Source: a virus (Duplodnaviria; Caudoviricetes). From it: a DNA stretch of 55,865 bases. The position numbers and the translations under genes were made by a program. Location of the stretch: positions 1 to 55,865 of the IMG/VR virus record IMGVR_UViG_3300024520_000090, one strand, 5' to 3'. Under the pieces are notes generated by a model that saw only the letters and a list, made by a program, of their open reading frames with translations, searched no databases and was not told the DNA's origin. This document shows, in pieces, positions 1 through 55,865 of the stretch; the first letter of the stretch is position 1, and each line of letters opens with the position of its first letter.

Positions 1-126
1 CTAAGCTCGCACCACGTTTTATCGCCTGGCCCATATAGCCTAGCGCCACCTTCGAGCGAGAAAAGCCTTGCGCAGAAGCGTAGGCTCCCTGAGCCAACCG
101 ACCGGAGTATTTATTTATCTTCGCCT
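1..126. repeat. Terminal direct repeat (circular-assembly overlap), copy 1
   Basis: 1-126 is identical to 55722-55847, implying a circular or terminally redundant unit of 55,721 bp. Confidence 0.95.
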
Positions 127-547
127 TTGCCTTCTGATCTTGCCCGTAGGTCCAAGGCCTCTTGCCCAGAGCACGATTAGTCTGGTCCGAGATTAGGGGG
201 CCCTGGTGCCGCTTCTTACGCCAGTCTTCTAGTAACTTAGCATCACGACCTGCCTGCATCTTACCCCTGTTTGCGGCAAGGGTGGCCGTGTTGACTACGT
301 CCGTAACCTTTGTGACAGCGTCTTTTCCCGCAGTGTAGGCCCCGTGCGCCCTAGCCCCGCCTTCGATAGCCGCAGCCTCAGGCCATAAAGATATAAGAGG
401 TTGCAGGGCCTCTTTGAGGGAGCGGGAGGCACGTTGGCCAGGGCTAAAGAACTCACCCAAAGCCTCTTCTTGAGAAGGTGACTCTGGCACCAGCTTCTTA
501 GCTACGGCGTCTCGCATTAACTTAAACTCGTCTCGATCTTGGTCCAT
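1..547 (-). CDS. N-terminal part of a ~323-aa hypothetical protein spanning the circular join (MDQDRDEFKLMRDAVAKK...)
   Basis: ATG at 547 overlaps the terminase stop (TAATG); hand translation shows no stop down to position 1 and the frame continues into 55297..55847. Confidence 0.8.
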   Translation of the reverse strand, partial: MDQDRDEFKLMRDAVAKKLVPESPSQEEALGEFFSPGQRASRSLKEALQPLISLWPEAAAIEGGARAHGAYTAGKDAVTKVTDVVNTATLAANRGKMQAGRDAKLLEDWRKKRHQGPLISDQTNRALGKRPWTYGQDQKAKAKINKYSGRLAQGAYASAQGFSRSKVALGYMGQAIKRGASL

Positions 548-3524: not shown

Positions 3525-5985
3525 TCCACTTCTCGACAGTGATTAGGTTGCCGAGATCTCTTGGGCTGATGGGCGTGTCTCCTCGTAGCTTGATACCCAA
3601 CCAAGGGCGGTATGTCGTGGCTGAACCCTTCTTCGAGGGCTTGCCCTGACGGAAACTGCGCTCCCGCATGAGCATAGCGAAGAAGCGGGGGTTCATCGCA
3701 CGCTCATGGCTCTCTTCGCACCAGTCGATGTAGGCGTTGTAGAGATTCTTCGGGTTAATCGAGTGCTCCGAGTCCAGTTCGCAGCGGTCCAGGAAAAAGG
3801 GCTTCATCGGGTCAAGCTCTTCGCGGTATTCTTGGGTGGCGTAGATGACTGACTCGGGAGGATTGAGCCCATTGCGCTGCCAATCGAGGCAGCCAGCGAC
3901 TAATCGGTTCAAGATGCCGGGTAACTCCCCTATTAACTTGTTATCAAGCTCCTTATCCTGTTTCTCCTCTGGAATACTGATCTCAAAGGGGACTAAGAGG
4001 ACTCGTCGCCAGATACCTTCGTCATTGCCCTTGATTATCGGCTTATGGTTGGCAGCAAGCCATAATTTGTGGGTAGGGAGGAACTCGAAGAAGTCTTGCT
4101 TCATATATCGGGCCTTGATGGGGTCACCCCCTGTCATTTGCTTGATTGAGGCCTCTGCAAGGGACTTCCCTCGGTCGATCTCCGCGCTAACGACCAAACG
4201 GGCCCCCATTAGGTCGGCTACTTCGGTCGGATGGCGCCCGCTCTTGCTCGCTACGAGTAATTCAGGGGCAGCTTGCTTAGCGTAGGTGCCCATCAGGCGC
4301 TGAATGGTGTTGAGGAAGGTAGACTTACCGTTCGCCCCAGTACCGTAGAGGAAGATGAGCTTCTGCTCTCGGACTGAGCCGGTGAGGGAGTAGCCGAGGT
4401 AGCGGTAGATGAATGAGATGAGGTCGAGGCGCCCCTCGAATATCTCGTGCATGAAGTTATCCCAGATGGGCGATTCTGCGTTGGTGTCATACTCTACCGG
4501 GCAGATCTTTGTTATCAGGTCAGACTTCTTGAAGGCCATTAACTGACCCGTTGTCAGGTCAATCGTGCCATTGGAGGTGTTGAGCTTCCAGGCATCTGCG
4601 TCAAACTTGCGGATAGGGACAGTCATACCAGGCTCGTTAGCTGCTAGCCCGACCATCGCGTGGAGCGAACCTGCGGATTCTGACTTCACGGCGTGCTTGT
4701 AGAACTTGCGGCTGCGCTCAGCGTCGTTCTCAGCGGCTGCTTCCCCGAAGATGTCGGCTACAGCCTCTTCTGCGAGACGCATTATGCGCCCAGTCTCGTC
4801 TAATTCCCACCGCTTGCCCGTGTAGCTTAGCCATTTGGACCAACTGGGAACGTACTTGACGTCCTCTCCGAATCTCTGCACCAGGCGCTTGGCATTACCG
4901 AGGTCGGTAAGCCCTGGAGAAGCAGCGGACGACCCAATAACTTGCGAAGGGGTCCCATCCCCGTCCCCGCTCGCTGTATTGAGCCGCCCGAACTTATCCT
5001 GAAAGGCTCGCCACCCTTTCCTGCCACTCCCAACGCAGCCCTTGTGTAAGCACCCCGCATACACTTCCCCGCTATGGGTCTGCACGATATAGGCGCTTCG
5101 GTCACGGTGATCCTCGTCAAATGGACATTGATCGAGAACCCACTTCCGTCCCTTGTCCCCCCACGGAATGGGAGCGCCTGCGGCAGAGAGATGCGCCGAG
5201 ACCCACAGGTCCAGGCGACGAGCCTTCGCAGAATTCATGGCACCCCGGTTCTCGGGGGCCCGCTTCGCGAATTGTTCTACGAGTTTCTTAGAAACCCGGT
5301 TGAAATCTTCTGGTATCTTGAGGACCTTGGCCAATCGCCAGGGCCTATCCTCGACATCTGCACCTTTGCGCACGGCAGTGCCATATAGCTTCCAGATCCT
5401 GGCTGGATTGAAGACCTTTTGGTCGATTGTTACCCCTTCTGTGTCGAAAAACAGACTCAGAGCGGAGTAAAAGCGCCGAATGATGGGGTCTTTTGGCTTT
5501 AGCGCGACTTTGTAGATGAGGTGCATCCCATTACCCGAGTCTCCGACGATGGGATTGGGCCACCCTTCGGCGTCGAGGCTGAGATAGATCGATCTTAGCA
5601 CTTGAGCGGCGAGTTTCTTCTCGCTATTGGCGGCGCTGACGTGGCTGGGGCGCACTGGGTCGATGTCGATGAGCAGGTAGGTGTGCTCCTGGACGTCATC
5701 GTCGCTTGTGGCGGGCAGCCCTTGCGTGATGCGGTTAGGACTACGGGCAAACAGCGCTGGGTTGATCTGGTTCATGGTGATGTAGACACCAGTGGCCCCA
5801 TCATCAGAACAGGCTGCGGCTGTTGTTGCCAACAGTTCTAGGTCGTTGAAATAACCCGACTTTGCCCGGGTCTTGCCGCCGTAATCGCTCTTGGAAAGCA
5901 CACGAAGCTCGACAACTTGGTCATCAGTAAACAGACTGCGGAGGGTCGCCAGGATCTCTGGGCGATTAGCTGCGGGGGGGTGCAT
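3514..5985 (-). CDS. AEP-type primase fused to D5/P4-family SF3 helicase
   Basis: N-terminal LLIDID and DSGNGMHL primase-polymerase motifs, CPF..H...C.H..C zinc motif, TDLGNAKRL D5_N motif, Walker A GTGANGKST, IKQMTGGD and GIWRR SF3 motifs. Confidence 0.92.
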   Translation of the reverse strand: MHPPAANRPEILATLRSLFTDDQVVELRVLSKSDYGGKTRAKSGYFNDLELLATTAAACSDDGATGVYITMNQINPALFARSPNRITQGLPATSDDDVQEHTYLLIDIDPVRPSHVSAANSEKKLAAQVLRSIYLSLDAEGWPNPIVGDSGNGMHLIYKVALKPKDPIIRRFYSALSLFFDTEGVTIDQKVFNPARIWKLYGTAVRKGADVEDRPWRLAKVLKIPEDFNRVSKKLVEQFAKRAPENRGAMNSAKARRLDLWVSAHLSAAGAPIPWGDKGRKWVLDQCPFDEDHRDRSAYIVQTHSGEVYAGCLHKGCVGSGRKGWRAFQDKFGRLNTASGDGDGTPSQVIGSSAASPGLTDLGNAKRLVQRFGEDVKYVPSWSKWLSYTGKRWELDETGRIMRLAEEAVADIFGEAAAENDAERSRKFYKHAVKSESAGSLHAMVGLAANEPGMTVPIRKFDADAWKLNTSNGTIDLTTGQLMAFKKSDLITKICPVEYDTNAESPIWDNFMHEIFEGRLDLISFIYRYLGYSLTGSVREQKLIFLYGTGANGKSTFLNTIQRLMGTYAKQAAPELLVASKSGRHPTEVADLMGARLVVSAEIDRGKSLAEASIKQMTGGDPIKARYMKQDFFEFLPTHKLWLAANHKPIIKGNDEGIWRRVLLVPFEISIPEEKQDKELDNKLIGELPGILNRLVAGCLDWQRNGLNPPESVIYATQEYREELDPMKPFFLDRCELDSEHSINPKNLYNAYIDWCEESHERAMNPRFFAMLMRERSFRQGKPSKKGSATTYRPWLGIKLRGDTPISPRDLGNLITVEKWNES

Positions 5986-6333: not shown

Positions 6334-6357
6334 TGTTACTCCTTAGGTCGTATGGGG

Positions 6358-6386
6358 AGACTAAGTCATTGAGAAGGCTATGTCAA
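6358..6386 (-). promoter_or_regulatory. Sigma70-type leftward promoter
   Basis: On the - strand, TTGACA-17 nt-TAGTCT, just upstream of the HTH gene RBS. Confidence 0.7.
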
Positions 6387-6494
6387 GCAACTTTCCACCT
6401 TTCTTACAGCCCCTCATAAGCGTTGCTGCTTAGACACTAAGCGGAACAGGCTACCTCTCGAAGTTACTTTAGGGTTTACATGGAATTGACGGCC

Positions 6495-6778
6495 TGTAAC
6501 CTACTGTAACCTACTTTGTAACCTCTGACTATGGCAGCTTACCCCTAGCTTATCGGAAGATGACTAGGGTGAATTACACAGGTTACAGAAAATCCCGCTT
6601 CCTATATATGTATAATGTGTGTATAACATGTGCGTTGATATGAATAATAAAAAAGAGTCTTAACCACAGAACTGTGGAAAATGGTATATGGGATTCTTTG
6701 TAACTTGTAACTTTTAACTAAGCTATTCCCTATCTAACTAACTTATTTGAGGTTACAGAGAGGTTACAGAGGGTTACA
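6495..6778. repeat. Iteron-like repeat array around an AT-rich core; putative replication origin
   Basis: TGTAACC at 6495, 6505, 6517; GGTTACA at 6581; TGTAACT at 6699, 6706; GGTTACA at 6751, 6762, 6772; AT-rich core at about 6600-6690; next to the primase-helicase operon. Confidence 0.7.
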
Positions 6779-8092
6779 ACCAGTAAAGTATATGTCAAGT
6801 CCAGTATGGAGGCTTATTATCTTAATGGGAACAGAGGATATGCGAAAAACCGCTGTTGGTTTCTGGGACTCCTATGGCAAATGGCAAATGGCATGGCCCG
6901 AAAGGGGGGATGGGTCCCCGTGTTCCGATTTCGGCACCTGGGTATGGCGTGTCGTTTGGGTCGTCTCGCGTGGGGTGGAGAGAGTGCGTCTCTTCCCTGT
7001 ACACGTATTGTGCGCTCAAATGGGAACACTGTCCAGGACTTTCTCAATTAATTGATAACGTAGTTTCGCCCGTACCTCCAACCAGGCTACACGTTATACA
7101 TATATACGCGGAATGTAAACACTGTTCACTTGAAGCTCCAGCGGCATTAGCGGAAGCTTTACAATCCTCTGCCCATTGTATACGTTCCGAATACACCAGA
7201 AAGTGGTCCCGCATAAATGCCCTTGCCGATGCCTTCTATGCGTATCTGGTATCCCTTGTTCGTTATCGGTCTCTCCATTCACTGGATTCAGGCCCTTCGT
7301 CGAGGTGCTCACCAGGGTGCAAGCTGGGGTCTGTCGTGCCCCCCATGGCTGGTCGGTTCCCAATTATCTCACCATTCTATTCGGTAGCGGCAAAGCCTTT
7401 CTGCATATTCGGAACAAATAACGCTACCCCTGGAGCCTCGGTGAATATAGGATGGGGTGTCTCCAGAAATTCTCCGGCGGCACGCTCTCTGAAATTCTCC
7501 GAAGTTTTCCCCGCTACCTAGCGTAGGCCAGTCCATTGCTTTCATTGCATACACGGACGCTACCTGACCAGCGGGGTCTACATACTCGGAGAAACGGTGT
7601 CCAATCGGCACGCAAGCTCGCCAGTCTTCACGGACTGGGTTACCATCGGGGATAACTCCCCTGCTTCTAATCGGAGTTAATGGCAGCCGGCACTCGTTGA
7701 ACGGGCACACCTCACACGGTAGGAAGAGACGACTATATGTCGCCGCGTGTGGGCTTCTAATCGATGATTCAGTATCCATTGGAAGAGAAAGAACCGACGG
7801 GGCTCCCTTTGCCTCCCCGTTGAAATTGCGCAGGATAGGTGCGCTTAGCCCGGGGGTCATACAGATCCCAGTCGACACGAATATGTCTCCGAATTCTGGG
7901 GAGACTAGTGAGTCCGAGTATAAACGGACGGGGATCGGCGGTAATACCTGGCGAGTGCTGAAAACAAGGCTTAGATGCCTTGCGAATACAGTTCTCAACG
8001 CGACAAACGGGAACACCCGGGGTTGACACCCCCGGGCTTCCAATTGAGCAGCACGGCCCAATGGTCCTGCTGCTCTATTGGAGGTTAGTCAC

Positions 8093-8341
8093 ATGAACGA
8101 ACAAGAGCAGGCGCTATTACGGCGCCTTTTATCCGTGCATCCTTGCACCGGTGCCGAGTGCACCGTTACCAAGCACGGCTTCATCGATGGCGACGACGGC
8201 CGGTTTTATCCGGGCTGGCTGGTAGTTGATACCGGTCGTATCACCGCTAACAAATATTTTCTAATGGGTGCCACCGATGGCATCGAGTATCGTTTCATTA
8301 TTGACGGCCGCTACAAGCGAGCCCATGTACAGGCTGTATAG
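8093..8341 (+). CDS. Hypothetical early protein
   Basis: GGAGG RBS, ATG at 8093; first gene of the + arm. Confidence 0.7.
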   Translation: MNEQEQALLRRLLSVHPCTGAECTVTKHGFIDGDDGRFYPGWLVVDTGRITANKYFLMGATDGIEYRFIIDGRYKRAHVQAV

Positions 8342-8354
8342 CCGGGGAGTCAGC

Positions 8355-8576
8355 ATGAGAAAGATAGTAGCCGGAGTGAGGCGGTACGTCCGCATCGAGA
8401 CGAGCCACGACAGGCTCAAGACAAAACCGACACGGAATATCCGGCCAGCCGGGCGCACTAAGCGCAAAACTGAACCCGTCGTTATGATTGGCGAGGAAGC
8501 CAAGTCAATGAGCGCCGCTGAATGGGGCGCCAAGATCACCAACAATTTCACGAGACCACTCGTGATCGCACCCTAA
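8355..8576 (+). CDS. Small basic hypothetical protein
   Basis: GGGGAG RBS, ATG at 8355, fills the gap between neighbours. Confidence 0.6.
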   Translation: MRKIVAGVRRYVRIETSHDRLKTKPTRNIRPAGRTKRKTEPVVMIGEEAKSMSAAEWGAKITNNFTRPLVIAP

Positions 8577-8584
8577 GGAGCACC

Positions 8585-8944
8585 ATGCTAGTATTGTACA
8601 ATGTGACCATCGAGTATCTACAAGATGCCCTCGACTTCCACGACTATCCAAACCAGACCCTAGTCAAGGGGCGGCCGATCGCTCTCGGGATCTCCCCCTT
8701 ATTCGATGAACGGATACAACGGGCACAGGATATGATCCGACGCTTACAGGCTACACTCCAGCCCGACGTGGCGCCGGAGCTTTGCCAACAACTGGACGCG
8801 CTCTACCGCTTCCTGATTGACCAGTTAACAATAGCGCTGGACACAGGTGAAACCGCACCCATTGACTCCGTGCTCAATATCCTCACGGACTTGCGCTCGG
8901 CGTGGCGCCATGCGGTGCACGAAGTGGAGGAAGAATGTCAGTAA
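8585..8944 (+). CDS. fliS: FliS-like flagellin export chaperone homolog
   Basis: AAGGAG RBS; MLVLYN...RIQRAQDMIRRLQATL...APELCQQLDALYRFLIDQL...IDSVLNILTDLRSAW follows the FliS four-helix pattern (LY..A / AQ.I..L...L / L..LY.Y....L / V..IL..LR.AW). Confidence 0.75.
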   Translation: MLVLYNVTIEYLQDALDFHDYPNQTLVKGRPIALGISPLFDERIQRAQDMIRRLQATLQPDVAPELCQQLDALYRFLIDQLTIALDTGETAPIDSVLNILTDLRSAWRHAVHEVEEECQ

Positions 8945-55296: not shown

Positions 55297-55847
55297 TTAC
55301 CTCTTTAGGCGTGCCGGTTGGAGGGATTCGATCTGTTCTTCCGTAATAGCTGCGTCATCGTCATCGTCATCGTCTTCAGCAAGGTCTCCCAACAAATCGT
55401 CCACCTCAAGACTTAGTCTGCCCTCCCACGCGCCGCCACTAGCTATGGCATCACGGTAGAGATCCTCGGATAAGATCCCATCCGAGTAGAGCTTTTGGGC
55501 GCGATCCGGGTTGTCCCGAAGGTATGTTACCAGCATGGCTGGTCTAGCGAAATCTTCCGCGACAAGCGGGGAAGGTTTCTCGTTCACCTTTGACTTTGAA
55601 TCTGCCATCAAAGTCAAATGCTCAACCGGGTCTGCCGCCTTGTTTGCCTGTTGGAGGGCCAGGATAGGGGCGTAGAATGCAGCTTGAACTGGCATGGTGC
55701 CCAGGATCCCGAGCGTGTCTACTAAGCTCGCACCACGTTTTATCGCCTGGCCCATATAGCCTAGCGCCACCTTCGAGCGAGAAAAGCCTTGCGCAGAAGC
55801 GTAGGCTCCCTGAGCCAACCGACCGGAGTATTTATTTATCTTCGCCT
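55297..55847 (-). CDS. C-terminal part of the join-spanning hypothetical protein
   Basis: In frame with 1..547 through the 126-bp overlap. Confidence 0.8.
55722..55847. repeat. Terminal direct repeat, copy 2
   Basis: Identical to 1-126, followed by 18 divergent nt. Confidence 0.95.
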
Positions 55848-55865
55848 GGGCCAACCGAGCCTGCC

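Follow-up and report, generated by a model that had tools for sequence, protein, structure and literature searches.

What would a phage do with a flagellin chaperone that lacks the very part with which such chaperones dock at the flagellar export gate? The question is raised by a 119-residue open reading frame in a stretch of DNA (hereafter the window) that is an entire IMG/VR virus record, 55,865 bp long and given a CheckV completeness of 100%. An original prediction, made from the sequence alone, had read the frame as a FliS-like protein that might act as a decoy for host flagellin. Here this reading was followed up by profile, structure and homologue searches and weighed against its alternatives.

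The locus and its open reading frame

The frame lies in a block of plus-strand genes, which is preceded by a long non-coding region. The features referred to below are as follows.

6334-7699, no strand assigned: non-coding divergent control region with repeated GTAACC/GGTTAC and no convincing ORF
7700-8092, plus strand: conserved, apparently structured leader (RNAalifold, covariance model R1)
8093-8341, plus strand: first ORF of the plus-strand block, 82 aa from the ATG at 8093, no family match
8355-8576, plus strand: basic protein of 73 aa, adjoining the FliS-like gene, no Pfam or PHROG match
8575-8580, plus strand: Shine-Dalgarno-like AAGGAG, read directly from the sequence, 4 nt 5' of the ATG
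8585-8944, plus strand: FliS-like gene (protein P0001), 119 aa plus stop; Pfam FliS, AlphaFold2 bundle, top Foldseek ranks FliS
8588-8644, plus strand: bundle helix 1 (aa 2-20), at which the protein begins, with no cap or FlhA-docking helix before it
8645-8695, plus strand: variable loop (aa 21-37), differing in length among relatives, low pLDDT
8696-8935, plus strand: bundle helices 2-4 (aa 38-117), containing the region that matches the Pfam FliS profile

The frame and its own ribosome-binding site are present at 8585-8944 (+), and all motifs that had been quoted as FliS-like were found in it. An alternative in-frame ATG at 8522, which would supply 21 further residues, was considered as the source of an N-terminal cap and rejected. 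We take the ATG at 8585 as the real start, not that at 8522, because the extension adds nothing to the Pfam match, overlaps the conserved upstream gene at its 3' end and is absent from relatives, whose starts all lie at ML.LYN or MT...; in a sister phage (IMG/VR record G001, described below), the frame corresponding to the extension is an alternative frame of the conserved neighbour gene. The gene had been placed among the first early genes of the phage. As to position this holds: the gene is the third ORF of the plus-strand block starting at 8093, which comes after 1.75 kb of non-coding sequence, and the sister phage has no ORF between the leader and this gene. Early expression is presumed from this position.

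FliS family and fold

For P0001, the Pfam profile PF02561 gave a score of 56.2 bits (E 4.9e-15), passing the gathering cut-off of 26.7, with aa 41-110 aligned to positions 45-114 of the 115 in the profile; a six-frame search of the whole record with the same profile yielded 54.8 bits. The FliS helical pattern noticed in the sequence was thus confirmed by profile search. The NCBIfam equivalog TIGR00208 scored 41.4 bits, under its cut-off of 53.75. In a phmmer search against PDB sequences, residues 2-114 aligned to residues 23-124 of Aquifex aeolicus FliS (E 1.3e-7), and eight of the nine distinct sequences at E<=1 were FliS.

An AlphaFold2 model, computed from a four-sequence alignment, had a mean pLDDT of 85 and showed the antiparallel four-helix bundle of FliS, with helices at residues 2-20, 38-56, 64-87 and 91-117. 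Searched against the PDB with Foldseek, this model of the protein alone recovered the FliS fold at all listed rows through rank 16 (TMq 0.72-0.78), the top match being 6gow_E (TMq 0.77, TMt 0.83, rmsd 1.7) and the first match other than FliS having an E of 0.12. ESM Atlas feature scores of 0.85-0.88 agree with FliS; they lie under the counting level and were treated as leads only. P0001 is a true FliS homologue, with a match far above chance, and both the significant profile match and the structural match on which the original prediction had made its case depend were found.

Since Pfam aligns aa 41-110 only, helix 1 and the following loop have diverged from the family. What had been described as an odd insertion between helices 1 and 2 is real, its nature being that of a variable loop: it is 14 residues longer in P0001 than in the 87%-identical P0002, differs in every branch, and was modelled at a pLDDT of 51-64, falling to <50 at residues 24-27.

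The missing N-terminal helix

The absence of an N-terminal cap, likewise noticed at the outset, was evident from the phmmer alignment, which opens at residue 23 of Aquifex FliS. In P0001, as in the five kinds of relative closest to it, the chain opens with bundle helix 1 and has ~22-25 N-terminal residues fewer than the FliS used for comparison (12 from outside the clade described below, 11 of them full-length). A larger alignment of 155 proteins was assembled from the best 150 of 192 HMMER representatives and cluster members added later, without the flagellin P0159 and without P0005, P0053 and P0097, which are long and contain several stretches or domains. P0005, a metagenomic protein of 374 aa, consists of three consecutive FliS-like stretches and reads as a triple-FliS fusion. 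Rows with at least 15 residues before helix 1 were counted as full-length, which applied to 117 of the 145 rows outside the clade.

In this alignment, the column of the N-terminal Tyr (Tyr10 in Salmonella) holds Y in 92% of the 117 full-length FliS outside the clade and is a gap in all 10 of the 10 clade members. The core columns Y74, L70, L58 and A84, present in 100%, 97%, 96% and 90% of cellular FliS, respectively, are kept in 10 of 10. P0001 lacks the N-terminal FlhA-docking helix with its conserved Tyr; it truly belongs to the FliS family but departs from it in one defining feature. The remaining 28 of the 145 non-clade representatives also have <15 residues before helix 1, many of them beginning at the internal Met of MLYDGA. 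These may be artefacts of gene calling or start-codon choice, contig-end truncations or true cap-less cellular paralogues; in the last case, the truncation may have arisen before the phage acquired the gene, and may serve an everyday function in the cell.

The part that is missing has a described function. In the structure of the Salmonella FlhA-C/FliS/FliC complex, FliS helix alpha1 forms the main contact with the FlhA cleft through Ile7, Tyr10 and Val13, Tyr10 is essential and 'absolutely conserved', and FliC and FlhA do not touch (PMC5932034). In free FliS, alpha1 is buried and autoinhibitory, and is displaced by flagellin (PMC5932034). As regards filament formation and swarming, the B. subtilis alleles fliS(delta2-18) and fliS(Y7A,Y10A) amount to a deletion of fliS, and the residues affected in them lie outside the flagellin interface (PMC6070490), and FliS(Y10S) lowers FliC secretion (PMC8527033). 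The last ~40 residues of flagellin wrap the FliS bundle in all four solved complexes (PMC7248283). The structural premise of the decoy reading is therefore sharper than originally claimed, as the absent part is the FlhA-docking helix of the literature and the bundle core is retained. Judged by its sequence, the phage protein would be the natural equivalent of the engineered cap-less FliS.

The phage genome and its lineage

PHROG matches were obtained for the large terminase, portal, DNA polymerase, primase-helicase, helicase, exonuclease, a Sak4-like protein and an excisionase-like (xis-like) HTH protein, while no tyrosine or serine integrase and no tRNA genes were found in the record. Two minus-strand ORFs that are open-ended at the ends of the window (2..547 and 55297..55863) join in frame across these ends with three bases between them, and the record for this reason fits a complete, circularly permuted genome. 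On the circle, the joined ORF has ~370 aa. It lies between the terminase and an 807-aa protein and is absent from the sister record, where those two abut.

With megablast, the window had no DNA match among cultured phages. Its DNA polymerase is at most 26% identical to those of cultured phages, and its terminase matched only that of Roseobacter phage CRP-7 among them, at 20%. At E<=1e-20, 285 relatives of the terminase were found; the 120 listed are 54-85% identical, many of them located on 47-57 kb contigs and several originating from Tara data. The phage belongs to a large lineage of ~50-57 kb genomes in marine data that has no cultured relative. The region is present in contigs of seawater, cold-seep and other sequencing runs.

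The statement that the genome holds no other flagellar gene stands for the four families within its scope, as Flagellin_N, Flagellin_C, FlgM and FliW had no match anywhere in the record at E<=1. The FliS-like gene is also outside the usual flagellar neighbourhood (fliD-fliS-fliT/flagellin locus), its neighbours being genes without known family. The phylogeny that was proposed as a way of inferring the host did not lead to one: among named cellular FliS, those nearest to P0001 come from Deltaproteobacteria and Polyangiaceae MAGs and are 33-34% identical to it (alignment A3), too distant to name a donor. A profile search of genome contigs with the phage FliS alignment A2 gave no match, and one with P0009 a single distant Actinomycetes MAG.

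Distribution and evolution of the FliS-like gene

A word-indexed search of 5.8 billion proteins returned three close relatives of P0001. Exhaustive HMMER search of 1.84 billion representatives yielded 192 proteins at E<=0.001, two of them at E<=1e-10. A tree of 154 rows, computed without P0118 as well, places ten sequences (P0001-P0004, P0154, P0010, P0155, P0016, P0156 and P0157) together on one side of a branch with an SH-aLRT of 86. Paths within this clade measure up to ~1.4 changes/site, with cellular FliS at least 2.1 away, and 24 columns are invariant among six aligned members.

The search of viral databases for further phage FliS, suggested with the original prediction, succeeded in IMG/VR, where a sister record was found, and found none in 50,697 phage records. 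The sister record (G001, comprising L007/L012; 30 kb, rated 57% complete) carries a clade member and is syntenic with the window, sharing the primase, the xis-like gene, the long non-coding region and a phrog_2554 gene. IMG/VR scans with P0001 and with alignment A1 gave no match, and that with alignment A2 the sister record only; a metagenome scan added one short relative (L002) and cellular loci. In PHROG, no family was found for P0001 (best E 0.11), and eight other FliS (five cellular, three from the phage clade) had no match at E<=0.001; BFVD held nothing under E 0.17.

By tblastn, P0001 and P0157 had no match in the 50,697 phage records. The cellular FliS query P0013 had a sole match there, MT836588.1 (L011, 1-5775), which was rejected as a bacterial locus. 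Filed as 'UNVERIFIED: Bacteriophage sp.', this entry encodes FlgL, FliW, a FlaG-like protein, FliD, FliS and a FliT-like protein, with nothing phage-like in the part read, and is probably a misfiled bacterial contig.

Among 27 IMG/VR loci with related terminases, an HMM built from A3 detected FliS (E<=1) in one, that of G001. Six of the loci extend at least 2.9 kb past the xis-like gene (L012, L013, L016, L017, L020 and L026), and FliS is found in one of these six. As it is absent from five of the six covering relatives, the FliS-like gene is accessory within the lineage. It is furthermore the most diverged of the 14 genes common to the window and G001, with 38% identity (window 8585-8944, L012 1421-1696) against 60-97% for the others, and the two phages carry it on opposite sides of the basic gene. 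Its low identity and switched side suggest replacement by a different allele, or exchange of the cassette, rather than drift, and the pattern of divergence fits a gene that interacts with the host. Between L002 and the near-identical L007, dN/dS is 0.30, weak evidence obtained from 5 synonymous and 5 non-synonymous differences.

Contigs of sequencing runs that belong to three separate studies also carry the FliS-like gene or a variant of it. In one contig, of run X10, the leader is followed by an approximately FliS-sized stretch unlike that of the window, the basic gene and phrog_2554; in a contig of the sister run X13, the leader leads straight into sequence that reads as the start of an L007-type FliS; and a cold-seep run holds a variant that differs in the 5' half of the gene.

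Leader and control region

The leader has a length of ~390 nt and was located at 7700-8092 (+) in the window, at 9560-9979 in L007 and at 3645-4090 (-) in L016. RNAalifold predicted 110 pairs for these three sequences, 25 of them with compensatory changes on both sides, and the GGAGG of the first ORF lies within the final hairpin. Covariance model R1, which covers the 3' 163 positions, detected the window, L012, L016 and L002 only, among 23 sources, and the leader had no match in Rfam. On the basis of these models, it is a candidate for a new RNA of these phages, either a structured leader or a regulatory one.

Positions 6334-8084 align to L007 with a mean column identity of 78%. The GTAACC/GGTTAC repeats lie roughly within 6475-6625 and 6695-6810, and 9 related IMG/VR loci share them in conserved form. 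In appearance they resemble iterons or operators, and they may constitute an origin or the binding sites of the neighbouring xis-like HTH protein. Scans for promoters and terminators performed no better than on shuffled sequence, and no RNA datasets were listed among the sequencing runs that hold the region.

Proposed function as a flagellin trap

Because the bundle core is kept and the docking helix missing, the phage protein would, by analogy with the characterized FliS, hold flagellin yet be unable to present it to the export gate. We favour the reading that it is a dominant-negative trap, which retains host flagellin instead of exporting it, and regard this as a serious possibility, if one that falls a little short of probable. 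Binding of flagellin, dominance over the FliS of the host and a benefit to the phage are features that we infer from the sequence.

The mechanism would run as follows. The protein is probably made early in lytic infection, and its bundle would capture cytoplasmic host flagellin by the C-terminal D0 segment, constitutively so in the absence of an autoinhibitory cap. As the complex could not dock at FlhA, the flagellin held in it would not be exported and filament growth would stop. In hosts with a FliW-CsrA circuit, the retained flagellin would occupy FliW and leave CsrA free to repress flagellin translation, an effect derived from the model in PMC6070490. In hosts with FlgM, the additional FliS-type protein would be expected to retain FlgM and keep sigma28 off, given the findings on FliS and FlgM in PMC8527033. 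In flagellated bacteria, flagellin ranks with the most abundant proteins (PMC6070490); lowered synthesis of it could free resources for the phage. Given that no integrase is present, the benefit is more likely to lie in resources saved, or in an export apparatus silenced, while lytic growth proceeds than in lysogenic conversion. Exclusion of flagellotropic phages, which had been proposed as a purpose, is less convincing, since existing filaments persist.

Several observations weigh against a flagellin trap. Filaments already built stay in place during the lytic cycle, so that the benefit is not obvious, and the host may not be flagellated. The gene is accessory, missing from five of six covering loci; its product scores under the equivalog cut-off of TIGR00208 and is aligned by Pfam over aa 41-110 only. 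N-terminal shortness is shared by 28 of the 145 FliS outside the clade, and the constant presence of the 73-aa basic neighbour hints at a different partner.

In its widest form, the proposal is that abundant marine lytic phages carry an early cassette, composed of the cap-less FliS and the basic 73-aa protein behind a structured leader RNA, which traps host flagellin, and perhaps FlgM as well, in dominant-negative fashion and so switches off flagellar export, with the FliS allele being swapped among phages to match the flagellin of the host. This we put forward tentatively and consider somewhat doubtful as a whole. A phage-made FliS able to hold flagellin and unable to deliver it would, with a single protein, halt filament growth and, via feedback, flagellin synthesis; flagellin export depends on one small chaperone.

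The basic neighbour and other explanations

The basic protein may be a functional partner of the FliS-like protein. The two genes adjoin each other in the window, in G001 (L007/L012) and in L002, in either order, and in the run X10 contig the basic gene adjoins the approximately FliS-sized stretch. Among the 27 related loci, the basic gene occurs in one, the same that also holds FliS, and the two homologue clusters of the basic protein have their longest contigs (5767 and 9730 bp) in common with the FliS clusters P0002 and P0156. This association supports an explanation in which the phage FliS is a private chaperone or holdase for a partner other than flagellin, most likely the 73-aa basic protein, within an early module unrelated to flagella; for such a use of the binding site there is a precedent in H. 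pylori, where FliS binds the non-flagellin protein HP1076 at its flagellin site (PMC7248283). Against it, the basic protein has neither a flagellin-like nor a FlgM-like profile, and it was not found alongside the P0003, P0004 and P0010 branches at the sensitivity of the homologue search used. The two proteins have also evolved at very unlike rates, with 75% identity for the basic protein and 38% for FliS between the window and G001; across the two phage types, the basic protein is 74-76% identical. We consider a private chaperone unlikely.

Alternatively, FlgM could be the main target, which the phage protein would hold in the cytoplasm, so that sigma28 stays off and late flagellar and chemotaxis transcription is shut down. 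Salmonella FliS binds FlgM and suppresses its secretion (PMC8527033), and the bundle is retained in the phage protein. Many bacteria, however, do not have this circuit, and the sequence does not separate FlgM binding from flagellin binding; as the principal function we hold it to be quite improbable.

It is similarly improbable that the protein is a working helper and not a decoy, one that keeps flagellin soluble or sustains motility of the infected cell, the export gate of the host being able to do without the N-terminal Tyr. The 28 of 145 non-clade representatives that have no N-terminal segment would agree with such a role, but the phage has no flagellin of its own, and loss of the N-terminus abolishes chaperone function in both systems tested in the literature (PMC5932034; PMC6070490).

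A captured host gene fragment without function in the phage is the least probable explanation, and a very remote one: although the gene is accessory, absent from five of six covering relatives, and lies in a variable region of small ORFs without known family, it has an intact frame with its own ribosome-binding site and a dN/dS of 0.30, and belongs to a monophyletic, deeply diverged clade of ten members with 24 invariant columns in the six aligned and the same clean N-terminal boundary in all.

Comparison with known systems

With the bacterial FliS of known structure (1ORJ and 1ORY from Aquifex, 5MAW and 6GOW from B. subtilis, 6CH3 from Salmonella, 3IQC from H. pylori), the phage protein shares family, fold and core residues. 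It differs from them in having no N-terminal helix with the docking Tyr and a longer, variable loop between helices 1 and 2, in the location of its gene, which is the early region of a phage and not a fliD-fliS-fliT/flagellin locus, and in its score under the TIGR00208 cut-off.

There are phage proteins that block type IV pilus assembly for superinfection exclusion. The logic would be shared, with a small early protein disabling a motility organelle; organelle and proteins are unrelated, and the likeness is one of analogy only. For phage-encoded FliS, full-text literature searches brought up no paper, in agreement with the original remark that this was not known as a described strategy of phage takeover. 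The sole apparent match was discarded, being the name of an author in a reference list.

Two further systems are comparable. FlaG of Campylobacter jejuni limits filament growth by disturbing the transfer of flagellin to FlhA (PMC11536152), and the phage protein would do likewise. FlaG belongs to the host and interferes with docking at FlhA, whereas the phage protein would compete for flagellin, and the two families are unrelated. The temperate Enterobacter phage FR-phi acts on the flagellar filament of its host, as is proposed here, by a different route: in lysogeny, it represses host fliC by RNA-guided TldR and provides a replacement flagellin (PMC13418256). FliS or a chaperone is never mentioned in the text on FR-phi (PMC13418256), and the present phage has neither integrase nor flagellin.

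Closest in architecture are the engineered variants fliS(delta2-18), fliS(Y7A,Y10A) and FliS(Y10S), in which, as in the phage protein, the bundle remains and the FlhA-recognition element is lost, here by nature. These mutants are unable to support flagellin secretion (PMC6070490; PMC8527033). The engineered alleles are loss-of-function ones and replace the sole copy of fliS, whereas the phage protein would act beside an intact host FliS. The phage FliS would represent a natural separation-of-function variant, usable to study the hand-over of flagellin to FlhA.
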